Source of the DNA: an uncultured Gammaproteobacteria bacterium
GTDB lineage: Bacteria > Patescibacteriota > Microgenomatia > Levybacterales > UBA12049
Length of the DNA: 64,000 bases
Direction: 5' to 3'
NCBI GenBank assembly: GCA_964507055.1
Contig: CAZDOJ010000002.1
Location: forward strand, 687-64,686
Shown here: piece by piece, positions 11,774 through 59,884 of the stretch
How the letters are laid out: every line of letters starts with the position of its first letter
How positions within the stretch are numbered: the first letter of the stretch is position 1
Notes under the pieces: model-generated
Told to the model about the DNA's origin: nothing
Seen by the model: only the letters and a program-made list of their open reading frames with translations
Databases searched by the model: none
Translations under genes and position numbers: made by a program

Positions 11774-12517
11774 ATGACACGGAATGAGGCGATCAAGTTT
11801 ATTGTACTTAGAAGTCTGGGTAATTTTTTAGTGCTATTTAGTTTGTATGGTGTTGGAGCAACTTTTGGTCCAGCACTCACAGAACAAATAAAGTATGCAG
11901 TTATTCAAATGCGTGGAATAGAGTTTACTGTCCAGGCGGACAATACTTCAGTAAGTCAACCAAGTTTCACTCAATCATCTTCAGAATCAACTCCACAAGT
12001 CCCTCAGGATTCTATCGGACGAGATCTTGGATTTGCAGATGTACTTGCAGGGAGTAAAGAGCAAGTATTGATGCCGAAAGACCCACTGTTTAGTATATTG
12101 ATACCTAAAATAGGGGCATCTTCTAAAGTCTATCCAAATATTGATCCAGAGAATCGTGATGAATTTCTTCCGGTACTCCAACATGGTGTTGCCCATGCTA
12201 AAGGAAGCGTTTTTCCGGGCTATCCAGGCAATACCTATCTCTTTGCCCATTCAGCTGACAATTGGTGGGATGTAGGGCGTTACAACGCCGTATTCTATAC
12301 ACTCAATAACCTTTCCGATAATGATGAGATAGTCATCTTCTTTGAAAATCGAAGATATGATTATGTCATAAAGCAGAAAATTGTTGCGGATCCCAATGAT
12401 GTTACTTATCTAACCAATAAGCATGAAGGGCCACATAAGTTAATCTTGCAAACATGTTGGCCTCCAGGAACAACCTGGAAACGGTTGTATATCGTAGCTG
12501 AACCGAAGGCTACTTAA
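11774..12517 (+). CDS. Sortase-family transpeptidase.
   Basis: N-terminal membrane anchor. Conserved His region YLFAHS. Catalytic Cys in LILQTCWPP (the sortase TLxTC motif), followed by the conserved Arg (WKRLYIV). Confidence 0.6.
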   Translation: MTRNEAIKFIVLRSLGNFLVLFSLYGVGATFGPALTEQIKYAVIQMRGIEFTVQADNTSVSQPSFTQSSSESTPQVPQDSIGRDLGFADVLAGSKEQVLMPKDPLFSILIPKIGASSKVYPNIDPENRDEFLPVLQHGVAHAKGSVFPGYPGNTYLFAHSADNWWDVGRYNAVFYTLNNLSDNDEIVIFFENRRYDYVIKQKIVADPNDVTYLTNKHEGPHKLILQTCWPPGTTWKRLYIVAEPKAT

Positions 12518-29076: not shown

Positions 29077-30492
29077 TTGACTCCGCACCATCGCTTCATT
29101 ACGATTAGGTTAATGGTAAATTCACACCGCTTTTTATTTTTGATTTCATTTATAGTGTTTTCTATTGTTTTTGCTTCTATAATCCCCAAAACTTATGCAG
29201 CAAATACACAATTGTCTGTTACTGTTTTTCTTCATGGGATAGGCAAAGGAGGAGATAGTGCCAATGCAAATAGTGGTGGGAATACTTCTCCCAAGAGTCA
29301 GCAAAAAGATGTATCAATTGGAGTATTTAATGCTCAGAATGTTTTAGTTTCAAGCAGCCGAGTTACAGCGACGTACTCTGCAACAGATGGTAATTATAAA
29401 GCCACGGTAGATTTAGGATCACTTGCATCAGGTTCGTACAATGTAGCAATACGCAGTGATAAGTATTTACAAAAGACTGCTGCTGGTATTCAGAACATTA
29501 CGTCAGGTAAGTCCAACACAATTGCTCCAGTTCGTTTAATAGCTGGAGATATCCTCATCGACAATATGATCAATATTCAGGATTTTAATATGCTGATGAA
29601 CTGTTATGCAGATTTAACTCCAGCAAAGGCTTGTACAACTGCCCAAAGCTCTCTGGCGGATTTAACTGATGATGGAAATGTAAATCAGTTAGATTACAAT
29701 TTATTCATTCGGGAGATAGGTAATAGAAGTGGTGAAGCAAATCCTACCAGCACTATTACATCTGCTCCAACAGTTAATCCTACAACGACAAAGTCTCCAA
29801 CTCCAAATCCATCTGGAAGTAATGCTTCTCTCCCTGCTCAAATACTAAATTTGACTAATTGGAAACTTCAGCTTCCGTCAGGTCAAGCAGAAAGTCCGAC
29901 GGAGATCAAACAGCCCGCACTTGCTACATATAAAAATGATCCATATTTTGTAACGTCAAATGGAGGTGTTCGATTTCGTGCTCCTGTTAATGGGGTAACG
30001 ACAAGTGGTTCTGATTATCCTCGTTCTGAACTCCGTGAGATGACCAGTAACGGTACAGCTCAAGCGAGTTGGTCTACTTCTTCAGGAACGCATACAATGC
30101 TTCTCGATGAGGCAATCACAGCGGTTCCTGTAACAAAGAAACATGTAGTCGCGGGGCAAATACATGATGGTGAGAATGATGTCATTGTTATTCGTTTGGA
30201 AATGCCAAAGTTGTTTATCGATATTGGGGGAACTGCTGGCCCGACACTTGATACAAATTATACTTTGGGTAAGCGATTTACAGTTAAGTTTGAGGTTACA
30301 GGTGGCAAAACAAATATTTATTACAATGGCAGTACAACTCCTACTTATACGATGGCAAATAATTATGCAAATGCATATTTTAAGGCTGGTGCATATACGC
30401 AATCTAATTGTACGAAGGAACCTTCAAATTTATGTAATGCGAATAACTTTGGTGAAGTAATTATTTACAAGACTGAAGTGGTACACAAATAG
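29077..30492 (+). CDS. Secreted polysaccharide lyase family 7 (alginate-lyase-2 fold) protein with a dockerin-like Ca-binding repeat and a Thr/Pro linker.
   Basis: PL7 blocks: NWKLQLPSG, YPRSELREM, GQIHDGEND, YFKAGAYTQSN. Dockerin-like segment DLTDDGNVNQLDYNLFI. Confidence 0.65.
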   Translation: MTPHHRFITIRLMVNSHRFLFLISFIVFSIVFASIIPKTYAANTQLSVTVFLHGIGKGGDSANANSGGNTSPKSQQKDVSIGVFNAQNVLVSSSRVTATYSATDGNYKATVDLGSLASGSYNVAIRSDKYLQKTAAGIQNITSGKSNTIAPVRLIAGDILIDNMINIQDFNMLMNCYADLTPAKACTTAQSSLADLTDDGNVNQLDYNLFIREIGNRSGEANPTSTITSAPTVNPTTTKSPTPNPSGSNASLPAQILNLTNWKLQLPSGQAESPTEIKQPALATYKNDPYFVTSNGGVRFRAPVNGVTTSGSDYPRSELREMTSNGTAQASWSTSSGTHTMLLDEAITAVPVTKKHVVAGQIHDGENDVIVIRLEMPKLFIDIGGTAGPTLDTNYTLGKRFTVKFEVTGGKTNIYYNGSTTPTYTMANNYANAYFKAGAYTQSNCTKEPSNLCNANNFGEVIIYKTEVVHK

Positions 30493-30840: not shown

Positions 30841-32691
30841 TTATCGACAAGCCATCTCTTTTTCATCGTAGGTAGTTTGGCAGCCTTTATCTCGAACACA
30901 TTGGTTGAATAAATCGCCACTTCTGCCATTTCGACAGAAGTTATAACATGCTTGACTCTCTATAACGACTGGTTCCATACATGCACCGTAGGTATTTTTA
31001 TAACCTTTTTGTTTGGCCAAACAATCAAAGTCGCTCTTTTTATTCAAATCTCCAATACTACATGCTGGCTCAGGATCTGCAGGTGCAGGATTTACTGGTG
31101 CTGGATCCGCAGGGGCTGGATTATTTCCTTTGCAAACGCCTGCTGAAATTTCAGCTGGAGTACAGTCATTTGGATTAGTTTGTCTATCTGCTGGTGCTTT
31201 ATAGTTTGGCGGATAAATCTTATTGGTATCTCGAGGAATCTCTGACTCTCCTGGAAGAGGTTTTTTGCCCGCAGGAACCTGGCTTGGTTGGCAGTAACCA
31301 AATTTTTCTACAGTATCTTTTGCACATGGAACTCCGAATTTATTTCGATACTGTGCATTATCTCTTGTCGCAGGAGCTGAATGATAGACAAAACATCCTG
31401 GTTGGCAACATCCATTAATAAGAGGGAAGTCACTTGCACAGCATTGGCCACTTTCGTTTGCACGATGTGATGGGCAGGATGGTTTGTATCCTATTGAGCT
31501 TCGTGGGTCAACACCTGGTGCAGCTGGCTTTGGAGGGAATGGATTTGTCTTTGGCTTAGCAGGGGATGGTGCTTTACACAATCCACTTGGAGGATTTACT
31601 GAAAGATCTACATATCCACTACAACATCCAGCCACATTATCTCCACTTTGACCATTTGGGATACATGCTTCTGCTTTGACTCCTGCATCATTTTGAGCCC
31701 CAATTGCATTGGCAACAATTTTTGCTCCAGCCACAGAAGGCTCATTGGTACTTGCCATATATTTAGCCGGTTGCGGGAATACTTGTTTGCCATCCTTATC
31801 AAACCACAACATTTCTACCGGACAGATCTTTGCACCAATGGCTCGCTTACAAAAATCTTTACAAGCATCACTATCAGGGGATGCTTTACAGAGTTGCTCG
31901 AGAATATCTTGTTCCTTTTGATCTAAAACAATATACTCATCACATTGTTGGTTTTCGCGTGCTTCACCAAGAACTGGACCAGAACATTGTCCGCCTTTAA
32001 ATATTTCACAATACTGACGACTCGTACAAAGAATATTCTTAGGATCTTTACTACAAAGTGCCTGGATATTGCTTTTGTCATTTGCGGTAAGAGTTTTTAC
32101 GCGGAGAGCTGTGCAGGCTGAACTTACGCGAACATTTGTGGCTTCTGTAATAGGGAGAGGTTGGCCATCGGTATTTGTGATGCCCGGTCCTACAACCCAA
32201 CCTTCACTTGGATCACCAGATTTGAACATATACGATGATTCTTTGCTGGTAAGGGTATCACCAGGATTAAGCGTCTTAGCTCCTTCCAATGGTTCAAAAG
32301 TTGCGATGTAATACTTTTTAAGTGACCCTGCAGCTATACCGTAATTTGCTATGTTAATTGGTAAATCTCCAATATTTTTATAGGTAAATGATCCTGAGAG
32401 GGTATCATTATAATAAATATTTTGCCCTACAAATTTTTGTCCATTCACCTTTATCAAACTTGCACCTTCTTGTCCCATACGGGTCCCACACAGTGTTGGA
32501 TCTGCTTCTCCTGTATGTAGACAACCAAAAATCGGGGGAGCATTAAATCCCTCTGCAAATTGCATGATACGCTGTGGCTGGAGGAGCGTAAAGACAGTCA
32601 ATGCCAGAATCGGCAACATGACGAAAAAGAAAAGCAAATTTCTTTTTTTATTCTTTACTTGTCTTGTATTCTTTTTTCTTAATTTAGCCAT
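30841..32691 (-). CDS. Secreted or membrane-anchored Cys-rich protein with a Pro/Ala repeat tract.
   Basis: N-terminal signal anchor. More than 40 Cys. PAPADPAPVNPAPADPEPA repeat. Confidence 0.4.
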   Translation of the reverse strand: MAKLRKKNTRQVKNKKRNLLFFFVMLPILALTVFTLLQPQRIMQFAEGFNAPPIFGCLHTGEADPTLCGTRMGQEGASLIKVNGQKFVGQNIYYNDTLSGSFTYKNIGDLPINIANYGIAAGSLKKYYIATFEPLEGAKTLNPGDTLTSKESSYMFKSGDPSEGWVVGPGITNTDGQPLPITEATNVRVSSACTALRVKTLTANDKSNIQALCSKDPKNILCTSRQYCEIFKGGQCSGPVLGEARENQQCDEYIVLDQKEQDILEQLCKASPDSDACKDFCKRAIGAKICPVEMLWFDKDGKQVFPQPAKYMASTNEPSVAGAKIVANAIGAQNDAGVKAEACIPNGQSGDNVAGCCSGYVDLSVNPPSGLCKAPSPAKPKTNPFPPKPAAPGVDPRSSIGYKPSCPSHRANESGQCCASDFPLINGCCQPGCFVYHSAPATRDNAQYRNKFGVPCAKDTVEKFGYCQPSQVPAGKKPLPGESEIPRDTNKIYPPNYKAPADRQTNPNDCTPAEISAGVCKGNNPAPADPAPVNPAPADPEPACSIGDLNKKSDFDCLAKQKGYKNTYGACMEPVVIESQACYNFCRNGRSGDLFNQCVRDKGCQTTYDEKEMACR

Positions 32692-33315: not shown

Positions 33316-33948
33316 TTATGGAGTTGGTTGGGCTGATGTTACTGCTGCCGTTGGGAAAGTCGTTGGAATACTGGTCGGAGATTTGTAGTTCGGTGGCATG
33401 ATCCCTGCTGTAGGTGCAGCTGTTGGAGCACCTGTCGGTACACCTGTAGGCGTACAAAATCCACCAATGACGAGCATTATATCCTTTGCACAACTGACCT
33501 TAAAGGCGTTCTTAAAGGGGGAGTTCTCACGAGTGAGGGGAGTTTGAATATATTTCGGTGTAGGTGTAGGCATATTAACTGGTCCTGAAGTGATTTTTCG
33601 GGCAGGAGCTTTTGTTGGAACTGGTGCTTTTGCAGCAGGGGCAAGATTAATAACGGGATTTGCTGGGGCCGCCGGTCCGGGTGCTCCTCCAGCACAATAA
33701 CCAGCACGGCCCGCTCCGTATGGAACACATGGTCCTGTCCCAACACATTGGTTATTTCCAGCCATATCACATCCTTGAGCCACGACTCTATTTACCTCTA
33801 GAGCATCTTTCTCTGCAGCAAACTGTCGTAGTATTTGTGATTGACTCAATGTAAATATAGTCAAGGCCAGAATAGGCAACATAATAAAAAAGAAAAGTAT
33901 ATTTTCTTTTTGTCTTTTAATAGTCTTTTTCTTTTTTATTTTGGCCAT
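33316..33948 (-). CDS. Secreted Pro/Ala/Thr-rich protein. Its N-terminal ~50 aa are paralogous to 30841-32691.
   Basis: The leader MAKIKKKKTIKRQKENILFFFIMLPILALTIFTL aligns with MAKLRKKNTRQVKNKKRNLLFFFVMLPILALTVFTL. Confidence 0.4.
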   Translation of the reverse strand: MAKIKKKKTIKRQKENILFFFIMLPILALTIFTLSQSQILRQFAAEKDALEVNRVVAQGCDMAGNNQCVGTGPCVPYGAGRAGYCAGGAPGPAAPANPVINLAPAAKAPVPTKAPARKITSGPVNMPTPTPKYIQTPLTRENSPFKNAFKVSCAKDIMLVIGGFCTPTGVPTGAPTAAPTAGIMPPNYKSPTSIPTTFPTAAVTSAQPTP

Positions 33949-35069: not shown

Positions 35070-35618
35070 CTAAGCACTAGCTCCTTTCTTTTCTTTAATT
35101 GCATTAAGTGTCATTACAAAATTTTGGATGTTCCAACTAAGTGCTCGATGCAAACCTTGTACAGGTGCATTCATCTGGCCAAGAAGTCGTGCTCGAAGTA
35201 CTGGCAATGGTGGGAGCGTTGCGATCTTTACAACTTCTTTATCTGTTACGATACTACCTTCAATAAGTCCAAATTTGATTGTTGGAAGTTTGAAATCTTT
35301 GATAGTCTTTGAAAGAAGTTTTAATGGTTCAACGATATCGCCATAGATAAAGAGTGCTGCTGTTGGTTGTGTAAATTTATTTTTTTCAGCTTCTGTATCA
35401 ATTTTATCTGTAAGTGCTCGGAGTAAAAGCGTGTTCTTCGCTGCTACAAATTCTGCATCAACTTTCTTCAAACCCTTTTTCAAACCCTCAAGTTGTTGAT
35501 GAGTAAGACCTTGGTAGTTTGCAAAAACAATACCATTTGCTTTACCGACCTTTTCGATAAGTTCTGCAGCAATTGCTTCTTTTTTTAATCTGTTTTGCGA
35601 TGTATTTACGTCTGCCAT
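35070..35618 (-). CDS. rplJ: 50S ribosomal protein L10.
   Basis: L10-family sequence, located immediately upstream of rplL. Confidence 0.8.
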   Translation of the reverse strand: MADVNTSQNRLKKEAIAAELIEKVGKANGIVFANYQGLTHQQLEGLKKGLKKVDAEFVAAKNTLLLRALTDKIDTEAEKNKFTQPTAALFIYGDIVEPLKLLSKTIKDFKLPTIKFGLIEGSIVTDKEVVKIATLPPLPVLRARLLGQMNAPVQGLHRALSWNIQNFVMTLNAIKEKKGASA

Positions 35619-35775
35619 ATTGATAAAAAAAAGACACTCTCGAGGAGTGCCGTGAAGTTCAAATAAACTAATGTGGCTCCTCGGTTGGGCTTACTTTTAC
35701 GCCAACTGTCTTTGGAATAATTAGTATTATAGCAGGGAAGGGGAAAAGTGTAAAGGGTAGTAAGGTTTTAAATTC

Positions 35776-38148
35776 TTACTGGGATCCAAGTGCTTGTTGG
35801 ATTGCACTTTTATATGCATCAGATCTAGCTTGATTCACAGTGCCACTTTCAGTAATAAAGCCTAAGTAATCACGTCCAGAATAGCCGTTCATAGTAAACA
35901 TATGTATCTCTTTAACCCATGGTCTATCCTTTGCAATTTTAACAAACTCTGGCATTGCACTGATATATTCTTGTTCAGAAGATGCTCGTTGATCTGTTAA
36001 ATTCATTTCAGTAATAATGAATGGTTTGCCATTTCCTCCCGGTTTGGACCACGCCCAAGCCTTTTTTTCATCAAGAACACTTGCCATTTCACTTGGTGTA
36101 AAGTAGAGATGGATTTCAAATCCATCAGCTAATTCGTATAGGTCAGGTACAGCGGCAAGGACTTGTTCTTGCCAGGTATTACTATCTGGATCAAGTGCTA
36201 CATATATTTTTGCATTTGGATTTGCAGCATGCCCGGCGATAATTGCATCCTTCATAATTCGTCCATAGGAAGCAGGGTCAATATCTCCTCCACGGAACCA
36301 ATTTCCATATGGTTCATTCATCCCTGAAAATGATTCGACTGCATATTGTGCTTGGTCTGGCTTGTTAGCAAAGTATGTTCCTCCTGGTCCATATTTTTTC
36401 ACTGCTTCTGCCATCTTGTTGGCATAATCTTGTCGATGTTTATCGAGGGAGGATAATCCTTCACCATCATTGACACAAAGCGATAAGTGCATTCCTTGAG
36501 CAGCTAGGGCCGGCAAGCCACCATTTGCGTCTTCAATGTTCACTTCACCCAGACAATCACGTGTTCCATTAACACCAAGAAGTGATTTAGCTCTTGCAGC
36601 AGCTCCATATCCGACTACTCCTGTTGCTCCATAAATCTTTTGCCCTGCTGTAGGAGCTGTCGATGGATTTGTACTTGGAGTTGGGGAAGTCCCAAAGAGC
36701 GTAGGAGTTGGATCCTGTGTAGGTTGTGCTCCAGTTGTAGGCACAGTTGTTGGCTCCACAGCATTGGTTGGTTCAGGGCATGGTGAAGGATTGCCCGGAT
36801 CTGTTGGGAGTGGGACATTGCCCCCACGAAGGATGTATTCGATAAGCCAGATCAGGAACTTCATAAACCGTTCGATGAAACCACCACCACGACCATGCTT
36901 GTGTTTTTTATGTTTTTTCTTGTTATGCATGACACTGCTTGTGCTTTCTTGACACGGGTTTATTGAAGGATACGGTGTACTTGCTCCACCTGAGGGATTA
37001 ACACCACCGCTAGGGACTGTTGATGGGTTTGTAGCACCACCACTCGGTGCGGCAGAGGTCGAAGGATTAATTGGTGCACAAGGAGGTTCTCCCACGCCAC
37101 CGACACAATAAATGGTTGGCGTAATAAGTGAAGGAGCTGTAGTAATCTGCGTTCCTGTCGAAGGTTGAACTCCTCCTGCAACTGGTGTGTAGCTGTTCCA
37201 CTCTTTTAACACTCGAAGTTTCTCCCACGGAATACCATTCATTTGATAGTAATCGCTGGTAAATCCTACGCTTGGATAAGGATCAGGTTTATCCATTGGA
37301 TGTTCAAATTGGAATGCCATACCTGCACCGCCACAGTCGATAACATATGCACCGTATTTTTGTAGTGCTTTTGCTACTGTTTTTTCACCTGCCGACATAG
37401 AGAGAGAATCAACATTTACAGATGGATCAAGCTGAATACGTGCACCTTCGGGGATTGCTCCAGCTCCACTATACTTTCCATCAGTTTTAACTGCAGGGAA
37501 GCGAATTTCATCAACGGCACAATAACTAGACGAGAATACTAAAGCATGCTCAATATTTCCTTGTTGCATTTCGTATGTTCTGACAATTCCAGCCAAACGT
37601 GAAGTTCCAGCTCCAATTGCTGAATTTTCAGGGGACCCTCGTCCGTCACCATCAAGGGGCAGAATTCCTCCCCAATTAGTCGTGGCTTTATCGTTTTTAT
37701 AAACCCAGAATTCATAACTTTTTCTTGAAGATAAATCAACAATCACCATTTGTCCGTCTGAGCCGGGAGCTTGCTTCGCATCGTCTGGGATTGGGACTTG
37801 TTCTGTCGAAATACCACAAGTACCCCAACTCTCAGTACAATTTATGTTATATTTGGGTGTATTTGCATCAGCGAAATATATAGGAGTACCGAACTCATAC
37901 AGGTCCGCAACCTTATCTCCACCGGCTAATGTTTGAACCATCTCAGCACTTTTCGGATCCAGTTGTACATTTGTGCCAATAGGCTGGTTCCATGCACTAT
38001 CATCTGCAAAAGGTCTTCCAGCATTTGGAGTCATATTTGTCGAAGCTTTACTGCGGTTATCTTGTTGTTGAAATACTGAGAAAATAGTGAGAGGAATTGC
38101 TAATGCAATTAATAGAGTAGGTATCAGGATATTAGGTTTTCTTCCCAT
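35776..38148 (-). CDS. Secreted modular protein: QQQDNRSKA leader, unknown N-terminal domain, shared cassette, and a C-terminal clan GH-A (GH5-like) TIM-barrel glycoside hydrolase.
   Basis: Leader FSVFQQQDNRSKAS. Putative acid/base GMNEPYG and nucleophile FIITEMN motifs, with FEIHLYF between them. Confidence 0.55.
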   Translation of the reverse strand: MGRKPNILIPTLLIALAIPLTIFSVFQQQDNRSKASTNMTPNAGRPFADDSAWNQPIGTNVQLDPKSAEMVQTLAGGDKVADLYEFGTPIYFADANTPKYNINCTESWGTCGISTEQVPIPDDAKQAPGSDGQMVIVDLSSRKSYEFWVYKNDKATTNWGGILPLDGDGRGSPENSAIGAGTSRLAGIVRTYEMQQGNIEHALVFSSSYCAVDEIRFPAVKTDGKYSGAGAIPEGARIQLDPSVNVDSLSMSAGEKTVAKALQKYGAYVIDCGGAGMAFQFEHPMDKPDPYPSVGFTSDYYQMNGIPWEKLRVLKEWNSYTPVAGGVQPSTGTQITTAPSLITPTIYCVGGVGEPPCAPINPSTSAAPSGGATNPSTVPSGGVNPSGGASTPYPSINPCQESTSSVMHNKKKHKKHKHGRGGGFIERFMKFLIWLIEYILRGGNVPLPTDPGNPSPCPEPTNAVEPTTVPTTGAQPTQDPTPTLFGTSPTPSTNPSTAPTAGQKIYGATGVVGYGAAARAKSLLGVNGTRDCLGEVNIEDANGGLPALAAQGMHLSLCVNDGEGLSSLDKHRQDYANKMAEAVKKYGPGGTYFANKPDQAQYAVESFSGMNEPYGNWFRGGDIDPASYGRIMKDAIIAGHAANPNAKIYVALDPDSNTWQEQVLAAVPDLYELADGFEIHLYFTPSEMASVLDEKKAWAWSKPGGNGKPFIITEMNLTDQRASSEQEYISAMPEFVKIAKDRPWVKEIHMFTMNGYSGRDYLGFITESGTVNQARSDAYKSAIQQALGSQ
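36690..37130 (-). repeat. Copy 1 of the shared ~140-aa Cys/polybasic/hydrophobic cassette (conserved at nucleotide level).
   Basis: LITPTIYCVGGVGEPPCAPI ... PYPSINPCQESTSSVMHNKKKHKKHKHGRGGGFIERFMKFLIWLIEYILRGGNVPLPTDPGNPSPCPEPT. Confidence 0.8.
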
Positions 38149-38201
38149 AGATAATAAGTAGTTCTAGTTTATATAAAAAATGGGGGTAAATACAAGTGTA
38201 A

Positions 38202-40205
38202 CTAGCGGCCAAGTGTGTTTATGAGAGAAGTATAAGCAGGTTTGGGTTGGAAATTAGAATCAAACATCAACGGATTTTGTCCCGAAAGCCATGTGTGTCC
38301 ATCGTAAAGTCCCCACGTTGTTATACCTGTGCATCCATTCTGTTTGCAAGCTGTCCCAAGTTCTGCATATCTACCGGCTTGATCGTCAATATTGATAACA
38401 TCAAGTTCAGTGATTTCAGCTTTTACTCCAGCTTCAGTAAGTCGTTTGATATTTGCACCGATTTCTGTACCAGTTCCTGGATAATCTCCCGCTGAATGCG
38501 TTTGGAGGCCGACTCCATTAATTGGGATCCCACGTGCCTTAAAGTCTTTTACCATATTGTAGACTGCATCAGATTTTGCTTTTTTATTCCCACCGCGATC
38601 GGCGATTCCTTCAGTCCCATAATCGTTATAGAATAACTCTGCATTTGGATCTGCTTCATGTGCCCATTGGAACGCTTTTGCAATGTAATCATCTCCAAGT
38701 TTTTGTTTCCAGACAGTATCTCTTAATGAACCATCATCATTAAATGCTTCGTTCACCACATCCCATTGTGCAACTTTTCCTTTATATCTTGTGACGACAG
38801 TTTGTATATGGTTTTTTAGTGCTGTTTCAGCTTCCGCATTACTTAATCCATCAACCCAGCCTGGTACTTCAATATGCCAAACGAGTGTATGGCCCCGAAC
38901 TCGCATATTATTTGCTTGTGCATAGTTCACTATTTTATCTGCACCGTCCCAATTAAACTGCCCTTGAGTTGGTTCAAGGGGACCAAACTTCATTGCATTT
39001 TCAGGGGTGAGGGAATCGAATTTATAGGTTTTTAATGTGTTAGTAAATGTTGCATTGTCGAGTTGGTCTGGTTCTATGGCTGCTCCCAAACGTACAGTCC
39101 CTGTTGAGGGGGCTGTTGTTGGGATTGTTCCAAAGAGCGTAGGGGTCGGATCCTGTGTAGGCTGTGCTCCCGTTGTCGGAACAATTGTTGGCTCCACGGC
39201 ATTGGTTGGTTCAGGACAAGGTGAAGGATTTCCTGGATCTGTTGGGAGTGGAACATTGCCACCACGAAGGATGTATTCGATTAACCAAATGAGGAATTTC
39301 ATAAACCTTTCGATGAAACCACCGCCACGACCGTGCTTATGTTTTTTATGTTTTTTCTTGTTATGCATGACACTACTTGTACTTTCTTGGCATGGGTCGA
39401 TTGAAGGATACGGCGTACTTGCTCCACCTGAAGGTGTAACACCACCAGTGACACCTGGCGTTCCATTGCCAGGAGTACCTCCACCAGTACTCGGAGTTGT
39501 TGTTCCAATCGGAGCACAAGGAGGTTCGCCAACACCACCGACACAATAGATTGTTGGTGTGATGAGTGTGGGAACAGGCTGTGTGGGTTGCACTGTTGTA
39601 GTTGTTGCAGGAATTGATTGCAAACAAGTCTTGGATTGGGGATCAAATACATTACCAGAAAACACTTCACGTCCTGCAGGAGGATTTACTTCAACTGCTG
39701 TTGTTTCTTTCGTCCACTGATTCTCACACTGAATGACACTATCTCCGGAATTGGTATCGCTGGTCATCCATATATCGATATGATATTTCTGACCGCTAGA
39801 CCAATCTGATATACATTGGGCACAGGTATCTTCCATGACGCCGTATTTTTTGAGAAAAGGAATATATACTTTTGTGCCAGCAGGAAATTCATTTGGATCG
39901 GTCGCAAATGTGACAGGATCTTCAAATGTTCCTACACCTCCTGCGGATTGATGAATTCCGGGAAGGGCAATATTTGCACTTGGAGGATCATTGTCTGGCC
40001 AGCCATAGAATGTTACCTGCATGTCTATTGTTTCAGTGGCTACTGTCTTTGCTGCCAGTGTTGATTCTTTTGGATTATCTTGTTGGCTATTTCGTTGCTG
40101 TAAATCTGCGTTATACTGTTGCGTTAGAGAATGAAGTGTAATGACTGGAACTATGACAATAGTGGCGAAAAGTATAAGTAATAAATGAGTCTTTTTCATA
40201 GTCAA
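38202..40205 (-). CDS. Secreted modular protein: N-terminal DPBB-fold (RlpA/3D/expansin-like) domain, shared cassette, and a C-terminal GH10 endo-1,4-beta-xylanase domain.
   Basis: GH10 blocks GHTLVWH, WDVVNEAFNDDGSLR, ITELDV, ITTWGLYDGHTW. N-terminal VTFYGWPDNDPP ... TKVYIPF. Confidence 0.75.
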   Translation of the reverse strand: MTMKKTHLLLILFATIVIVPVITLHSLTQQYNADLQQRNSQQDNPKESTLAAKTVATETIDMQVTFYGWPDNDPPSANIALPGIHQSAGGVGTFEDPVTFATDPNEFPAGTKVYIPFLKKYGVMEDTCAQCISDWSSGQKYHIDIWMTSDTNSGDSVIQCENQWTKETTAVEVNPPAGREVFSGNVFDPQSKTCLQSIPATTTTVQPTQPVPTLITPTIYCVGGVGEPPCAPIGTTTPSTGGGTPGNGTPGVTGGVTPSGGASTPYPSIDPCQESTSSVMHNKKKHKKHKHGRGGGFIERFMKFLIWLIEYILRGGNVPLPTDPGNPSPCPEPTNAVEPTIVPTTGAQPTQDPTPTLFGTIPTTAPSTGTVRLGAAIEPDQLDNATFTNTLKTYKFDSLTPENAMKFGPLEPTQGQFNWDGADKIVNYAQANNMRVRGHTLVWHIEVPGWVDGLSNAEAETALKNHIQTVVTRYKGKVAQWDVVNEAFNDDGSLRDTVWKQKLGDDYIAKAFQWAHEADPNAELFYNDYGTEGIADRGGNKKAKSDAVYNMVKDFKARGIPINGVGLQTHSAGDYPGTGTEIGANIKRLTEAGVKAEITELDVINIDDQAGRYAELGTACKQNGCTGITTWGLYDGHTWLSGQNPLMFDSNFQPKPAYTSLINTLGR
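39140..39570 (-). repeat. Copy 2 of the shared cassette.
   Basis: Identical polybasic-hydrophobic core to copy 1. Confidence 0.8.
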
Positions 40206-40237
40206 TTTGAAAATAATGTATCTACAAAGAAATTAAA

Positions 40238-41329
40238 CTAATTCTTTGGAGACATGCATGTTCCCGTAGCTTGATTCCAAATAGGATTTGGATCTACTGC
40301 AAGGTTTGCTGGAGGGTCGATAATAATTTGTTCATTACCAGATGGGGTGAGTGATTCTTCACATTGTATAACTGATTCACTATCTGAAGGATTTCCTACG
40401 TAGAGATCAACCATAGTTACTGCACCACATCCATCAGGAGCTGTCCATGAAACAGCACATTCGTCTTCACGAATAAAGTATTTTTGGACACGAGGGACAT
40501 AGATTTTCTGTCCAAATGCATATTCACCAGGACCAGCAGGGGAGGCAAATGTAAGTGGGTCTTCATATGATCCTGTCCCTCCAGCCTCTTGATGGATAAC
40601 TGGATTTGCAATTGCCTTTGAACCCTTTGGATCATTATCATATGAACCATAAAATGTAATCTTTACAGTTGCCTGAGTTCCACTACCTGTAGAAGGGGAC
40701 ACAGATGGAGAAACTGTTGGAGCCGTAGTTGTCCCAAATGTAGTTGGTGTTGGATCTTGTGTCGGTTGAGCTCCACCTGTTGGTTGGGTTGTAGGTTGTG
40801 GTTCTGTTGTTGGCTCAGGGCAAGGATTTGGAGTTCCTGGATCTGTTGGTGCAGGTACGCTACCGCCTCGAAGAATATATTGAATGAACCAAAATATAAA
40901 TTTAAAGAATCGTTCGAAGAATCCACCACCTCGACCTTGCTTGAACTTCTTTTTCTTTTTGTTATGCATGACACTGTTTGAACTGTCAGTATTACATGGA
41001 TCGACTGAAGGATATGGAGTACTTGCTCCACCTGTTGGATTTGTTACACCGGTAGGAGGAGCTGTAGAAGGTGAAGTACTTGCTCCGTTTGTCGGTGCTG
41101 TCGTTGAGGTTGGTGCCATGGTCGCACATGGAGCGGATCCTACGCCTCCAACACAATAAATTGTTGGTGTGATAAGGGTAGGAGCCATTGCTTGCAAAAC
41201 TGCTGTTTGTTGATTCTCACTAGCAGCTGCTTTACTGCGGTTGTCTTGGTTTTGCGATACAGAAAAAATAGTGAAAGGGAGGGCGAATAATAAAAAGAGG
41301 GTAGAAAGTAATAAGAATTTTTTCTGCAT
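40238..41329 (-). CDS. Secreted protein: QNQDNRSKA leader, a diverged copy of the shared cassette, and a C-terminal DPBB-fold domain.
   Basis: Leader FSVSQNQDNRSKAAA. Cassette SVMHNKKKKKFKQGRGGGFFERFFKFIFWFIQYILRGGSVPAPTDPG. C-terminal VKITFYGSYDNDPKG ... QKIYVPRVQKY. Confidence 0.6.
   Translation of the reverse strand: MQKKFLLLSTLFLLFALPFTIFSVSQNQDNRSKAAASENQQTAVLQAMAPTLITPTIYCVGGVGSAPCATMAPTSTTAPTNGASTSPSTAPPTGVTNPTGGASTPYPSVDPCNTDSSNSVMHNKKKKKFKQGRGGGFFERFFKFIFWFIQYILRGGSVPAPTDPGTPNPCPEPTTEPQPTTQPTGGAQPTQDPTPTTFGTTTAPTVSPSVSPSTGSGTQATVKITFYGSYDNDPKGSKAIANPVIHQEAGGTGSYEDPLTFASPAGPGEYAFGQKIYVPRVQKYFIREDECAVSWTAPDGCGAVTMVDLYVGNPSDSESVIQCEESLTPSGNEQIIIDPPANLAVDPNPIWNQATGTCMSPKN
40759..41185 (-). 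repeat. Copy 3 of the shared cassette (most diverged).
   Basis: See the parent CDS. Confidence 0.7.
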
Positions 41330-41401
41330 CTTACTTATATCGTATCCAAATTAAGGCGGCGTTACAATAGTTGCTTACAAAATAAATTGTACTTGTGAAA
41401 T

Positions 41402-43846
41402 TTATTTCTTGTACATGTGGACCCAATCTACTTCCATCTTACCTTCTTTAACTGGAGTTTGACCGGTGAGATTATCAAGTTGAATTGTTTGGTGCATTGA
41501 AACATTTGGATTTGATCCTTGGCCATCGGTTGAATAGATTTCTTGGCCATCAACATATCCTTTGAACCCAGCAGCTGTCCATTCAAAACCATAGACATGC
41601 CATTGAGAAATATCTACATCTTCTTCATGACTGAAACAATTTTGTGAAGCATTGCCAACACAATGGAGGAATACACCCATACCACTTCCAATATTTGACT
41701 CAAAGTAATCTAATTCACCGTCATTCCAAACATCAGTGTCTGGCCAAAGAATTAATACAGGGTGAGGTGCTGATCCACTCGTTCCTGTAGAATATGCTCG
41801 CATTCTGACTTCCCAGTATCCATATTTTTGTGCAAAGTCAGAAGACATACCACATGTTGATCCATCCGCGAGTTGTGTTTGCGTCAACATACCGTTACCA
41901 AATGTACATTGTGAAGATTTACGTCCACCGCCAACTACGGTATCACCACCGCCGCCGTCATACGCTGTCCATCCTGAAGGCATACTTGTACCATTAAAAT
42001 CTTCGCATTTACTTATCGTATATCCGGTGACTGGGGCATTTGGTGTAGCAGCTGATCCGCCACATGTTGTTGCCGTTGGATCTCCAGTTCCGCCTCCGGT
42101 TGAAGGAACAGGGGAAGCAGCTGTAGAAATAGTTGGAACCGCTGTTGTTCCGAATGTTGTAGGCGTTGGATCTTGTGTTGGCTCAGCTCCTCCTGTTGGT
42201 TCAGTTGTAGGCTGTGGCTCTGTTGTTGGTTCAGGACAAGGGTTATTCGGATCAGTTGGAAGTGGGACATTCCCGCCACGAAGGATATATTCAATTAACC
42301 AGATCAGGAACTTGATGAATCGTTCGATAAAGCCACCACCACGACCATGTTTGTGCTTTTTATGCTTTTTCTTATTATGCATGACACTATTTGTACTTTC
42401 TTGGCATGGTTCAACAGTGGAAGGGTATGGTGTGCTTGCACCACCAGAGGGGTTTACTCCACCAGTAACACCAGGAGTTCCTGAACCTGGAGATCCACCA
42501 CCTGCACCTGGAGTAGTTGTTCCATTAATCGGAGCACAAGGAGGTTCACCAACGCCACCGACACAATAAATTGTTGGTGTAATTAGGGATGGGGATGCAC
42601 TGATTGATGGATTTGCTCCACCGGTTGCACCAAATTCATATGCACCCATATCAATGCCACTGCCAGCAGGTCGAGCTTTATTCTCTTTATCAAATGTTGG
42701 AGCACCGTTAGCATCACCTTTATCAATAGCAGGGGAGCCTGCTGCAAGATGGTAGTCGCCATTACCTACGAAACCTGTCGTCGTAACAAGATTATTACCC
42801 ATTTGCAGGCCATTACCACTTGGATTACTCGTAAAGATGTTATTAAAGACAGGATTCGATCCACTTGGAGCTTCGACTACATTAATTGGCTTATCCTCAT
42901 CAATAGTATTGTTATAAACGCGGATATCTGACAATGTTCCTCCAGATTCTACCCAGAATGTTATACCGCCTCCAGCATTACCGTAGATAACATTATTAAA
43001 GATATCAATATTTCCAGCTTTTTTTGGATTCTCACTTCCTCCATAGGATGTTTCAGCAGCAATCATGATGCCGGCTTTACTTCCTTCGGTTGTGCCATAG
43101 GAAGTATTATTGTAGATTTTAATGCCACTTGAGCCATCGACATAAATGTTTGGACCGCGATTACCAAAGACTACATTGTCGTGAATAGTTCCGTTAACTT
43201 CACCTGCACCATTGTATTTAGCATCAATTCCTTCTTCGCCATTGTCATGAACTTGGCAATTCTTGATCTCAAAGCCTGTTGAGCCGCCAGTAATACTCAA
43301 AGCTTCGCCGTCAGCACCTGTACCTTCAGCATTTGTTCCGTGGATATTACAACCATCAACAACGACGTTTTTACTGCCAGATATTATCAATCCACCATCT
43401 TGTGAGCCATCAATCTCAAAGTCTTTTAGTACTAAACCATCTGCACCGTTGACTTGTGCACCAAAGCTGCTTGAGCCTTTTACTGTAATCCCGATGAGCG
43501 TAACACTCTGACCAGAGATTTTCATTGTGCCATTGGTTATTACGCGTCCTCCAGTTGCTTGAACTGTGACATTGCTTGCAGATATATCAAGTGTTTCATT
43601 ATATGTGCCTGCTGCGACATTGACAGTACCTCCTGATCCTGCTGATTGGATTGCAGAATTGATTGAGCCTCCGGGTTGAACGTCAACTGTTACTCTTGCG
43701 GATGCAGCTTTACTACGATTATCCTGTTGTTGGAGTGCTGCAATGACCGTAATAGGTAGAACGAACATTGTAACGAGAATAGCAAAAAGAACTTTACGAT
43801 TTTTCATCCGTATCTTTATGTTATATACAAAACTCGTGTAATACAA
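41402..43846 (-). CDS. Secreted modular protein: QQQDNRSKA leader, right-handed parallel beta-helix (pectate-lyase-like) domain, shared cassette, and a C-terminal GH16 beta-glucanase domain.
   Basis: Leader IAALQQQDNRSKAAS. PbH1-like repeats (NCQVHDNGEEGID, IHDNVVFGN, IFNNVIYGNAGGG). GH16 catalytic motif WNDGELDYFESN (ExDxxE). Confidence 0.7.
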   Translation of the reverse strand: MYYTSFVYNIKIRMKNRKVLFAILVTMFVLPITVIAALQQQDNRSKAASARVTVDVQPGGSINSAIQSAGSGGTVNVAAGTYNETLDISASNVTVQATGGRVITNGTMKISGQSVTLIGITVKGSSSFGAQVNGADGLVLKDFEIDGSQDGGLIISGSKNVVVDGCNIHGTNAEGTGADGEALSITGGSTGFEIKNCQVHDNGEEGIDAKYNGAGEVNGTIHDNVVFGNRGPNIYVDGSSGIKIYNNTSYGTTEGSKAGIMIAAETSYGGSENPKKAGNIDIFNNVIYGNAGGGITFWVESGGTLSDIRVYNNTIDEDKPINVVEAPSGSNPVFNNIFTSNPSGNGLQMGNNLVTTTGFVGNGDYHLAAGSPAIDKGDANGAPTFDKENKARPAGSGIDMGAYEFGATGGANPSISASPSLITPTIYCVGGVGEPPCAPINGTTTPGAGGGSPGSGTPGVTGGVNPSGGASTPYPSTVEPCQESTNSVMHNKKKHKKHKHGRGGGFIERFIKFLIWLIEYILRGGNVPLPTDPNNPCPEPTTEPQPTTEPTGGAEPTQDPTPTTFGTTAVPTISTAASPVPSTGGGTGDPTATTCGGSAATPNAPVTGYTISKCEDFNGTSMPSGWTAYDGGGGDTVVGGGRKSSQCTFGNGMLTQTQLADGSTCGMSSDFAQKYGYWEVRMRAYSTGTSGSAPHPVLILWPDTDVWNDGELDYFESNIGSGMGVFLHCVGNASQNCFSHEEDVDISQWHVYGFEWTAAGFKGYVDGQEIYSTDGQGSNPNVSMHQTIQLDNLTGQTPVKEGKMEVDWVHMYKK
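42166..42586 (-). repeat. Copy 4 of the shared cassette.
   Basis: SVMHNKKKHKKHKHGRGGGFIERFIKFLIWLIEYILRGGNVPLPTDPNNPCPEPT. Confidence 0.8.
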
Positions 43847-43877
43847 GTATTATTTTAGACTTTCTTTATCTTTAAGA

Positions 43878-44015
43878 TCATCTCGGTTCAATAAGAAATG
43901 GCTCCACGGTTTGTGCCTTGGTTCTATTATCTTGTCCTTGAAGTGCCATAAATACGGCGAATGGAATGACCAGAAGAGAAAGTAAAAGAAGAATAAGAAT
44001 TTCTTTGCGTTTCAT
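43878..44015 (-). CDS. Leader-only mini-ORF (45 aa): signal-anchor helix plus QGQDNRTKA motif, then stop.
   Basis: Manual translation of the minus strand: MKRKEILILLLLSLLVIPFAVFMALQGQDNRTKAQTVEPFLIEPR*. It is below the 60-aa cut-off of the ORF track. Confidence 0.4.
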   Translation of the reverse strand: MKRKEILILLLLSLLVIPFAVFMALQGQDNRTKAQTVEPFLIEPR

Positions 44016-44068
44016 GAACTATAACTATCGTAGCTGAAGAAATCTAGTCTTTCAAGAGAAGGGGAGTA

Positions 44069-44899
44069 TTACAAAGAAGCTGTTTCTATCTTTAGTCCTG
44101 GTGACATTGTGGATTTCAAGGTTACATTCTTAATATTCTTTACTTTAACTGCACTTACAGCTGTTTTGATGTTATCAGCTAATTTTTTATCACCAAATGA
44201 AACTTTACCTACTGCCATATGAAGAATAGGGAATTTAGCTTCAGTTTTGAAATTAATTTGTCCACCAGCAAACTTCTTTGCTGCTTCCTCAGGTTTTGGA
44301 GTCACTGTTCCATTTTTTGGATTTGGCATAAGTCCTCGTGGTCCAAGCACACGTGCAACTCGTGCAAGTTTTGGCATAGAATCAGGTGTCGCGATCAACA
44401 CATCAAAATCTACTTTTCCAGCTTCAATTGCTTTAATTAATTCTTCAACAGCTTTTGGATCTTCAGAAGCATTTGCAACTACAACTCGTGTCTCTTTACC
44501 AGTTCCATGAGGCAATACGACATTTCCATTGATTCCTTTTTCATTTGTATTAATGTGAAGTTCGACCGTTTCATCAAACTTTGCTCTTTGGAGCTTTGGA
44601 AGTAATTCGAGTGCTTCCGCTAAAGCGTATTTTTTATTCTTATCAACTTCAGATGAAACTTTATTGTAACTCTTTGAGTGTTTTACTTTCTTTTCAGCAG
44701 TTTGCTTTACGTAGTTTTTCCCTTTTTCAGGTTTTGATTCCGGAGATTCAGTTACTTCAGCTGTTGCTACTTTTTCATCAGCAGCTTTTGCCGCTGCTTC
44801 TAATCCAGCTTTTTTTGCTTCAGCCTTTTTCTCAGCTCGTAGCTTTTCTTTATTTTCTTGTTCTTCGTCTCCGACTGTTTTGACTCTAATTTTTCCCAT
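44069..44899 (-). CDS. rplA: 50S ribosomal protein L1 with a ~95-aa Lys/Glu/Ala-rich N-terminal extension.
   Basis: L1 core GKVDFDVLIATPDSMPKLARVARVLGPRGLMPNPKNGTVT. N-terminus KEKLRAEKKAEAKKAGLEAAAKAADEK. Confidence 0.85.
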   Translation of the reverse strand: MGKIRVKTVGDEEQENKEKLRAEKKAEAKKAGLEAAAKAADEKVATAEVTESPESKPEKGKNYVKQTAEKKVKHSKSYNKVSSEVDKNKKYALAEALELLPKLQRAKFDETVELHINTNEKGINGNVVLPHGTGKETRVVVANASEDPKAVEELIKAIEAGKVDFDVLIATPDSMPKLARVARVLGPRGLMPNPKNGTVTPKPEEAAKKFAGGQINFKTEAKFPILHMAVGKVSFGDKKLADNIKTAVSAVKVKNIKNVTLKSTMSPGLKIETASL

Positions 44900-58921: not shown

Positions 58922-59884
58922 CTATATCTTTGTTACTTTTACCTCTTGAGTGACTCTTGTGTCAGGAGTAGTATTAATTTCGTATTCAATGGTTGTAGCA
59001 TCTTTCCAACCTTTTACCAAACCTCGAGCTGGTAGTAATTCCATTCTTTCAGTCCCTAAATCAATTGCAACAATAAATGTTGCTGCATCAATCGGTCCAG
59101 TATTAAATGTATTTCCATAACTAAGAGCAACTTTTCTTCCATCAGGAGATGGCATCATCTGACTTATTGTCGCGGTTTTTTGTATTTGAAGTGCCGGCAA
59201 TGTGCGTTTGATATCAGCCAATGTAATATCTTTTACAACTTTTTTCTGTGGTATGGAATAGATGATGACATTTTGGTAATCAGTTTTACTGCCGCCTGCG
59301 AATATTACTTGAGAGAAATCCTTTGAAAAGAATGCAGAGTCTCCATATGCAGAATCATATGTATATCCAATAACTCTTACCTCGGTTGTCCGTGCATTAA
59401 CCAATTGTACTTCATTAAGCAAATCCCAGTCTTCACGCTTAAACAAACGTATTCTTAGGTCATTTTGCTTACCATTTGCTGTAAAAAACGGTCCAGGAAG
59501 GGGAGTTGGAGTAGGCGTTACAGGTTTTGTTGGCAAAAGTGAATTAATATCAACTGTTGGTTCAGGGATATATTCATATTGAGGAGTTGCTCCTCCAATT
59601 GGTGTGGGTGTTCGATACGGCTTTGTCGTAATCATTCCTGAACCTCCGGTTATTTGAGCATCTGCTTCATTTGTTGGGATTGGTGTCCCTTGTTCATTAA
59701 CGACCACTGAATTTTGTGGAGTGAGCGTTCCGTTTTTATGGGTACCTGGAGCAAAGAATCCGGCAATAAGTGCTGCAACCACTGCTACAGCTAAGCCTCC
59801 CAGTGAAATAAAAAGTATTTTCTTTTTTTTTGATCCGCCAGTATCTGATGTGGGGAACTCAGATTGTTGATTGAATAATGCCAT
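58922..59884 (-). CDS. Hypothetical membrane-anchored protein.
   Basis: N-terminal TM plus Pro/Thr-rich linker. Confidence 0.3.
   Translation of the reverse strand: MALFNQQSEFPTSDTGGSKKKKILFISLGGLAVAVVAALIAGFFAPGTHKNGTLTPQNSVVVNEQGTPIPTNEADAQITGGSGMITTKPYRTPTPIGGATPQYEYIPEPTVDINSLLPTKPVTPTPTPLPGPFFTANGKQNDLRIRLFKREDWDLLNEVQLVNARTTEVRVIGYTYDSAYGDSAFFSKDFSQVIFAGGSKTDYQNVIIYSIPQKKVVKDITLADIKRTLPALQIQKTATISQMMPSPDGRKVALSYGNTFNTGPIDAATFIVAIDLGTERMELLPARGLVKGWKDATTIEYEINTTPDTRVTQEVKVTKI

Follow-up and report, generated by a model that had tools for sequence, protein, structure and literature searches.

A conserved leader of Levybacteria-like exported proteins is probably a Sec-type signal peptide, and a leader-only reading frame near rplA probably a gene remnant

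An island of cargo genes lies between the ribosomal protein genes rplA and rplJ in a 64,000-nucleotide stretch of DNA from an uncultured bacterium of the Levybacterales (contig CAZDOJ010000002.1 of assembly GCA_964507055.1, positions 687 to 64,686 of the forward strand; the whole stretch is called the window here). The products of these genes share a conserved N-terminal leader, and at the edge of the island a 45-amino-acid (aa) open reading frame (ORF), the mini-ORF, encodes little besides this leader. The leader, including the copy in the mini-ORF, is probably a Sec-type signal-peptidase-I signal peptide typical of Levybacteria and candidate phyla, with the mini-ORF being the remnant of a lost first cargo gene. 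As far as found, the leader constitutes a sequence-defined signal-peptide class of candidate-phyla bacteria; no published description of it was found in the literature searched, an earlier description being possible beyond that scope.

Leader copies in the window

A shared leader on the island proteins had been recognized in a first-pass annotation of the DNA, and all five copies were recovered in the ORF listing and in six-frame regular-expression scans, with the quoted sequences correct. All five begin at the initiator Met. In four minus-strand ORFs between rplA and rplJ, the mini-ORF included, a basic n-region is followed by 20-22 hydrophobic residues and then by Q-x-Q-D-N-R-(S/T)-K-A. The leader of g790 (38038-38148, minus strand) reads MGRKPNILIPTLLIALAIPLTIFSVF-QQQDNRSKAS, or MGRKPNILIPTLLIALAIPLTIFSVFQQQDNRSKA↓ST when the proposed cleavage site is marked by an arrow, and is identical in the protein P0093. 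The leader of g363 (41222-41329, minus strand) reads ...LPFTIFSVS-QNQDNRSKAA (MQKKFLLLSTLFLLFALPFTIFSVSQNQDNRSKA↓AA) and is identical in P0001, and that of g801 (43700-43807, minus strand) reads ...LPITVIAAL-QQQDNRSKAA (MKNRKVLFAILVTMFVLPITVIAALQQQDNRSKA↓AS). For g801 the ATG at 43807, not the TTG at 43846, serves as the start, as indicated by the 801-aa gene that Logan calls from this ATG and by the orthologue in the relative L009. The g667 leader (40050-40199, minus strand) is degenerate and lengthened (...QQRNSQQDNPKEST; ...IVPVITLHSLTQQYNADLQQRNSQQDNPKESTLAA). The n-regions of the window leaders are MGRK, MKNRK, MQKK and MKRKE, each followed by 20-22 uncharged, mainly hydrophobic residues.

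The leader is conserved at the level of the peptide. A back-translated pattern, CARNNNCARGAYAAYMGNASNAARGC, has four matches in the window (38045, 41229, 43707 and 43915), all on the minus strand, and none in 100 shuffles. The DNA sequence that had been reported to recur beneath the motif, gctttactgcggtt(a/g)tcttg(t/g)t, is present exactly at 38045 and 41229, but at 43707 it is found only with three mismatches. DNA identity among the window leaders is 63-75%. Eleven copies of the motif were tabulated, of which the window supplied four, L009 two, and L005, L006, L113, L034 and L093 one each. Nearly every codon varies synonymously among them, the codons used being CAA/CAG, GAT/GAC, AAT/AAC, CGT/CGC/CGA/AGA, AGT/AGC, AAA/AAG and GCT/GCA/GCG, which points to selection on the peptide rather than on a site in the DNA. 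Between the window and L009 (81% rplA identity), conservation of the g790 leader equals or exceeds that of the mature protein.

These observations bear on the proposal that cargo is exchanged behind a fixed leader, with the conserved stretch serving at the DNA level as a site of recombination or a cassette acceptor. In favor of such a site, domain architectures are shuffled in the rplA-rplJ interval, a hotspot for cargo, and a leader-only stub stands at its upstream edge. However, the codon table largely refutes the proposal, given the synonymous differences and the extent of DNA divergence among the leaders. Moreover, recombination between leaders would yield hybrid genes rather than a stub, and the DNA repeats that look recombinogenic are in an internal cassette, not in the leader. 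A role as a cassette acceptor, which the first-pass annotation had offered for the mini-ORF, is thus very improbable.

Distribution beyond the island

A simple outcome would have been a motif restricted to recently duplicated paralogs of the island. This is not the case, as the comparative search recovered the motif outside the window on unrelated proteins from other metagenomes. These unrelated carriers and the synonymous codon differences indicate that the leader is a real signal under selection rather than a by-product of recent paralog duplication. The passengers of the module in other metagenomes comprise cohesin/PKD, beta-helix, GH26, laminin-G, dockerin and BNR proteins as well as LPxTG-type sortase substrates. 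A 36-position profile of four window leaders, compared with 1.84 billion representative proteins, matched 21 proteins at E <= 0.001. All 21 matches are N-terminal, starting at residues 1-23 and spanning within residues 1-52, and their passengers include PKD, cohesin plus laminin-G, beta-helix, dockerin and BNR domains. Two leader-bearing proteins, P0100 and P0111, have C-terminal LPATG/LPVSG motifs followed by a hydrophobic tail, which are sortase-type signals.

Further carriers came from individual searches. The g363 search returned a GH26 enzyme (P0046) that carries ...LPLTVFSLLQNQDSRSKA and is encoded directly after rplA, the place held in L113 by a GH26 enzyme bearing QNQDSRSKA. The leaders of P0002 and P0005 read ...PLTIFLV(E/Q)KEQDVRTEA. 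In a metagenome scan with the DNA pattern, two of 82 exact matches were true leaders, those of a 479-aa FN3 protein (L034) and a cohesin-like protein (L093), in which Q(Q/R)QDNRSKA follows a hydrophobic helix; the remaining matches were due to chance or unrelated, an example being a conserved ...LDQKQDNRSKAVAIAAGRKFF enzyme. A cohesin-like protein encoded between rplA and rplJ in L014 has a leader of its own, KNPKENRTAA, without the Q motif. A search seeded with this protein gave 33 proteins, at least 20 of which read ...IAIP(L/V/I)T(I/V/L)(Y/F)..(Q/K)QQ(E/D)(L/T)R(S/T)(R/K)A↓A....

A word-indexed search of 5.8 billion proteins with the leader-only profile produced 49 word-sharing candidates, none at E <= 10, and a metagenome scan with the leader alignment gave 71 pattern matches, none of which passed tblastn confirmation, for which the query is too short. 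Neither Pfam nor NCBIfam has a model that covers the leader, the N-termini having been scanned with NCBIfam at E <= 1. The labels of the closest relatives of rplA are Candidatus Levyibacteriota/Levybacteria or Patescibacteria. Exact look-ups with rplA, rplK and rplJ found matches only from the same population (runs SRR142713xx). A cluster label was returned for P0077 only, and this label is Levybacteria.

A second, related leader is present on two exported proteins of the window (30841-32691 and 33316-33948, minus strand), with the sequence ...LLFFF(V/I)MLPILALT(V/I)FTL(L/S)Q(P/S)Q..(M/R)QFA(E/A). It is kept in L009 and L005 and, like the first, has a Pro in the h-region, Q-x-Q and a terminal Ala; the spacing differs. 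In addition, a C-terminal module, ...F.(I/L).LHGIG..GD..N... with a dockerin-like segment, recurs on many of these secreted proteins, among them an alginate-lyase-domain protein of the window (29077-30492, plus strand), L034 and P0104, P0106 and P0107.

Geometry of the leader and the predicted cleavage site

The module consists of P-x-T and, after it, (Q/K)-Q-Q-(E/D)-x-R-(S/T)-(K/R)-A, with the Ala 16 residues past the Pro. In residue counts anchored on the Pro (59 partly redundant sequences), Thr occupies +2 in 52 of 59, Gln +10 in 45, Glu or Asp +11 in 48, Arg or Lys +13 in 48, Ser or Thr +14 in 47 and Ala +16 in 56. The (S/T)-x-A triplet conforms to the -3/-1 rule for signal peptidase I, the last two counts being those of Ala at -1 (56/59) and Ser or Thr at -3 (47/59). 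Ala, Ser, Gln, Thr and Leu are the commonest residues after the conserved Ala, and Pro is outside the top five.

Homologues of the cargo provide a second line of evidence. The cassette-family homologues of other Levybacteria (L007, L008, L011, L012 and P0006-P0020) have short, ordinary signal peptides of the VYA↓Q, VNA↓Q and FAQ types in exactly the place of the leader, immediately ahead of the conserved TPT(L/I)YC(L/V)G with which the mature part starts; junctions of this kind are ...VVYA↓QS, ...VVNA↓QS and ...TFA↓QE. The g790 orthologue of L005 retains the SKA↓STN...AGRPFAD junction, although its Q motif has decayed to NASQQTGLNSKA. The N-terminal layout, the (S/T)-x-A triplet, the ordinary signal peptides of the homologues and the sortase-type C-termini together argue for a signal-peptidase-I signal peptide. 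The leader is composed of a short Lys/Arg-rich n-region, an h-region of 20-22 residues with a near-invariant Pro-x-Thr, and a polar c-region in which the final Ala is the predicted -1 residue, with Ser or Thr at -3. Its function would be to take the products of the rplA-rplJ island, glycoside hydrolases and other cargo, across the membrane, and the mature proteins would begin with Ala, Ser or Gln.

Judged from these sequences, export probably proceeds by the Sec pathway, with cleavage after the conserved Ala. The first-pass annotation had raised the possibility of a signal peptidase site in a KAA↓S context. A site at the conserved Ala is indeed the best reading, but cleavage is placed after (S/T)-K-A and not after KAA because the former is the only site common to all copies. 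A sortase-domain protein (11774-12517, plus strand) is encoded downstream of a 2708-aa protein (2437-10563, plus strand) that has an ordinary AHA↓E signal peptide. The presence of a sortase in the window and of sortase-type C-termini on leader proteins favors a cleavable export signal.

Several features do not sit easily with a signal peptide of the ordinary kind, or with its assignment to a lineage. The h-region of 20-22 residues is long enough for an uncleaved membrane anchor, and the c-region, with nine residues, exceeds the usual length. Strong sequence conservation of a c-region over unrelated proteins is unexpected for ordinary Sec signal peptides, and the signal-peptide explanation gives no reason for the retention of Q-Q-(E/D)-x-R. 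Most matches are without a taxonomic label, so that the lineage claim is based on the 26 Levybacteria-like loci together with the domain types.

The first two features would suit an uncleaved signal anchor, in which the hydrophobic segment spans the bilayer and Q-Q-(E/D)-x-R-(S/T)-(K/R)-A forms a juxtamembrane stalk that tethers hydrolases and adhesins to the surface of a very small cell. Retention of exo-enzymes at the surface would be plausible for such organisms. However, the -3/-1 pattern and the scarcity of Pro at +1 are needed for cleavage and not for anchoring, and the same leader is found on proteins with C-terminal LPxTG-type signals, which normally shed their signal peptide. In addition, the homologues bear short, clearly cleavable signal peptides. 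An anchor is therefore quite unlikely.

The conservation of the c-region raises a different possibility, namely a motif that serves as a dedicated tag for sorting or processing, read by a lineage-specific factor such as a specialized signal peptidase or a site-directed secretion machinery. Both sequence and spacing are far better conserved than in ordinary signal peptides, and this across unrelated passengers. Within one genome region, signal peptides of the leader type occur side by side with ordinary AXA-type ones (examples are the window proteins at 29077-30492 and 2437-10563 and the fasciclin proteins), so two classes of exported protein could exist, and motif-bearing signal peptides with a targeting role have a precedent (PMC5962339). 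On the other hand, no candidate for a cognate enzyme is encoded in the island or elsewhere in the 64-kb window, none of the window proteins scanned is a peptidase S26, and no NCBIfam signal-class model matches. The cargo homologues of sister lineages manage with plain AXA signal peptides. Moreover, the motif decays gradually (in the 856-aa protein of L005, in the L014 family and in g667) while (S/T)-x-A persists, which suggests that the cleavage site is the essential part. Thus, of the sorting or recognition signal that had been proposed, the selected signal stands and the associated export or modification system does not find support, and a dedicated tag is unlikely. A more far-reaching version, in which the leader is a distinct, undescribed signal-peptide class of candidate phyla with its own export route and its own factor, a specialized signal peptidase or a machinery of targeted secretion or surface retention, and the leader-only ORFs are its expressed products, for example small exported peptides, is doubtful; if true, the leader would define a separate route for surface enzymes and adhesins. 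For a Sec-type signal peptide, the conservation of Q-Q-(E/D)-x-R is perhaps due to a preference of the signal peptidase or the envelope of the lineage.

Comparison with known signal systems

The closest likeness is to the Sec type I signal peptides of monoderm bacteria (cleaved by LepB/Sip). With these the leader shares its N-terminal position, a Lys/Arg-rich n-region, an overall size of about 35 residues, a long h-region in which a helix breaker occupies the middle, and a cleavage context with small -3 and -1 residues and with Pro absent from the common +1 residues; AXA versions of such signal peptides replace the leader in homologues. All the features of position, charge, hydrophobicity and small -3/-1 residues that define the type are present. 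Ordinary signal peptides conserve only physicochemical properties, whereas the leader has a sequence-conserved c-region at a fixed distance from P-x-T on unrelated carriers.

The nearest conceptual parallel for a sequence motif inside a signal peptide is found on surface proteins of staphylococci and streptococci, in which the YSIRK/GXXS motif at the boundary of the n- and h-regions directs septal secretion (PMC5962339). The leader resembles these in having a conserved motif within a Sec signal peptide on a subset of surface proteins, some of them LPxTG proteins, in a monoderm envelope, but its motif is in the c-region beside the cleavage site. Neither YSIRK nor GxxS is present in the five window leaders, and no NCBIfam match to such a motif was obtained.

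Other signal types are absent from the window leaders. The twin-arginine motif of Tat signal peptides (S/T-R-R-x-F-L-K) is lacking and the n-regions contain no RR pair. There is no lipobox (L-x-x-C), and no Cys is found within the first 50 residues of any of these leaders. The prepilin motif (G↓F-T-L-x-E before a hydrophobic segment) is likewise absent; for contrast, a true prepilin-like signal, KGFTLIELLVV, is found in a 191-aa protein of L026. The SipW-cognate signal peptides of Firmicutes (TasA/TapA type; NCBIfam TIGR04088), another precedent for a tag read by a dedicated factor, are similar in being a sequence class linked to one signal peptidase. However, the leader is unrelated to them in sequence, has no NCBIfam match at the threshold given above, and has no gene for a SipW-type peptidase nearby.

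The leader-only ORF

The mini-ORF (43878-44015, minus strand) was found exactly as first quoted, with the 45-aa sequence MKRKEILILLLLSLLVIPFAVFMALQGQDNRTKAQTVEPFLIEPR followed by a stop codon. It consists of the n-region MKRKE, a 20-residue h-region with IPFA, QGQDNRTKA and 11 more residues. Four independent Logan assemblies, each from a different run (L001-L004), show the identical arrangement, which is thus not an assembly artefact of the window. The mini-ORF is missing from the records as a called gene.

Its position and surroundings resemble those of a first cargo gene. The three closest relatives that cover the spot (L009, L005 and L113) contain no counterpart of the mini-ORF; in its place are a 176-aa ORF with an HxGH motif (L009), a 449-aa leader-cassette-GH16 gene (L005) and a GH26 gene (L113). 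A promoter-like site, TTGAAA-17-TACGAT (44027-44055, minus strand), which is a consensus match only, ends 11 nt before the ATG. The complete upstream sequence, cTCTTGAAA-17-TACGAT-AGTTATAGTTC-ATG, matches that of the first cargo gene in L005, cTCTTGCAA-17-TACGAT-AATTATAGTA-ATG, and L113 has the same layout. The junction of the mini-ORF, ...KA↓QT, resembles the NA↓QS (L005) and KA↓QS (L113) of first cargo genes and not the KA↓A/S of its neighbors. Homology between the window and L009 restarts 44 nt before the start of g801 and amounts to 93% over 71 nt, into g801, so that it resumes right after the stub.

Going by these comparisons, the mini-ORF is most likely a truncation stub, the best-fitting of the options that had been put forward for it, since it has no counterpart in the three relatives, is uncalled, and has a promoter box and start context like those of L005. 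The ancestral first cargo gene after rplA would have kept its promoter, start codon and signal peptide, and the remainder would have been lost or replaced as the hotspot was frequently rearranged. The mini-ORF may still be transcribed and translated. Shine-Dalgarno evidence is uninformative on its translation, because most genes here lack such a sequence.

Against a stub, the mini-ORF has an unbroken frame, every one of the conserved leader residues and a promoter-like site, which fits a recent truncation but equally a functional small ORF. A functional gene could encode an exported pro-peptide of the Phr type, with about 11 residues (QTVEPFLIEPR) as its product, or act as an upstream ORF that modulates g801. 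Phr-type signalling pro-peptides exported by Sec are similar to the mini-ORF in size and layout: those of Bacillus likewise number about 40-45 residues and pair a signal peptide with a very short C-terminal peptide. The arrangement around the promoter-like site is conserved, and g801 starts 70 nt downstream with no terminator-like site between, so a shared transcript could occur. Complete short leader ORFs also exist elsewhere, in P0099 (89 aa) and P0101 (62 aa). However, the mini-ORF is not conserved in the three relatives. No receptor (such as a Rap/RNPP-type gene) or regulator gene is adjacent, the neighbors being rplA and a glycoside hydrolase gene, and the ORF occupies the place where a first cargo gene was probably lost, with the promoter-like context of that gene. 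The RNA structure is unremarkable (z = +0.5) and gene finders made no call. The mini-ORF does not have the properties of a secretion-monitor arrest peptide (SecM, MifM or VemP): with 45 codons it would be too short, as the signal peptide would still be within the ribosome at termination, and the downstream gene encodes a beta-helix/GH16 enzyme. The regulatory-peptide option of the earlier annotation has therefore gained no positive support, and a functional gene is improbable; a stub remains the preferred interpretation.

Two further candidates were rejected. One is a regulatory RNA or attenuator in the stretch from the mini-ORF to g801, dismissed on the basis of the same fold z-score and the lack of a terminator-like site, and a frameshift or read-through that fuses the mini-ORF to g801 was dismissed because the two are in different frames with intervening stops.

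Complete short ORFs with the leader and a short tail lie on unrelated metagenome contigs, with 62 aa (L120, 948-1136), 80 aa (L121, 2534-2776) and 89 aa (L122, 360-629). In the 80-aa ORF a TP-rich linker joins the leader to a short tail without homology, and this ORF looks like a truncated gene. The 89-aa ORF resembles a small basic secreted protein.

The cargo hotspot between rplA and rplJ

The island is preceded by the minus-strand genes secE, nusG, rplK and rplA, the last of which (44069-44899, minus strand) forms its upstream boundary. The mini-ORF is followed on the same strand by g801 (41402-43807), which encodes a beta-helix, the internal cassette and a GH16 domain; g363 (40238-41329), with the cassette and a C-terminal domain that has no Pfam match; g667 (38202-40205), with a GH10 domain; and g790 (35776-38148), the last cargo gene before rplJ. 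The downstream boundary is a strong promoter-like site, TTTACA-17-TATAAT with a TG, together with an L10-leader-like RNA (35617-35754, minus strand), ahead of rplJ and rplL. The RNA matches RF00557 with 40.2 bits (E 0.0011), just below the gathering score of 44. Since the promoter-like site and the RNA precede rplJ, the cargo island separates the rplKA transcription unit from that of rplJL.

The rplA-rplJ spacer measures between about 270 bp and 7.5 kb in the 26 Levybacteria-like loci, and its cargo varies. The hotspot (35619-44068 in the window; L005-L030 and L113) contains mainly genes for secreted enzymes and adhesins, and a separate promoter and the L10-leader-like RNA are kept before rplJ.

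An internal cassette of about 170 aa is common to all four island proteins (36680-37146, 39118-39584, 40722-41194 and 42132-42604, minus strand). It reads LITPTIYCVGG..PC.. and then HNKKKHKKHKHGRGGG-FIERFMKFLIWLIEYIL-RGG..PCPEPT, contains a polybasic run and an amphipathic or hydrophobic helix, and has no Pfam or NCBIfam match. In a 726-aa protein of L009 the N-terminal part of g801 is joined to the C-terminal part of g363 through the cassette, which therefore looks like a domain-shuffling linker; it is perhaps also a surface-retention module. The Logan assemblies break within the cassette. Antisense ORFs of 170 aa (39037-39549, plus strand) and 180 aa (42027-42569, plus strand) face the Pro/Thr/Gly-rich cassette and are most likely composition artefacts rather than genes.

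Ribosomal protein L1 has an N-terminal extension of about 70 residues rich in Lys, Glu and Ala (44690-44899, minus strand), which is also present, with varying identity, in Levybacteria-like relatives. Gene starts in the window mostly lack a Shine-Dalgarno sequence (e.g., 11774, 49678, 57503, 58922-59884 and 59972), and in many window genes a TATAAT-like box ends 6-8 nt 5' of the ATG. This combination suggests widespread leaderless or near-leaderless mRNAs.

Significance

The leader does not overturn current understanding and its value is moderate. Surface proteins of candidate-phyla bacteria are thought to mediate host attachment and polymer degradation. A sequence-conserved leader offers an easy way to mark the secreted and surface proteins of these uncultured bacteria, and it could sharpen gene-start calls and signal-peptide prediction in their genomes. 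It also points to a testable substrate preference of the signal peptidase or the envelope of the lineage. The rplA-rplJ spacer emerges as a hotspot for secreted-enzyme genes in Levybacteria, with the leader-only stub as a probable footprint of their turnover.

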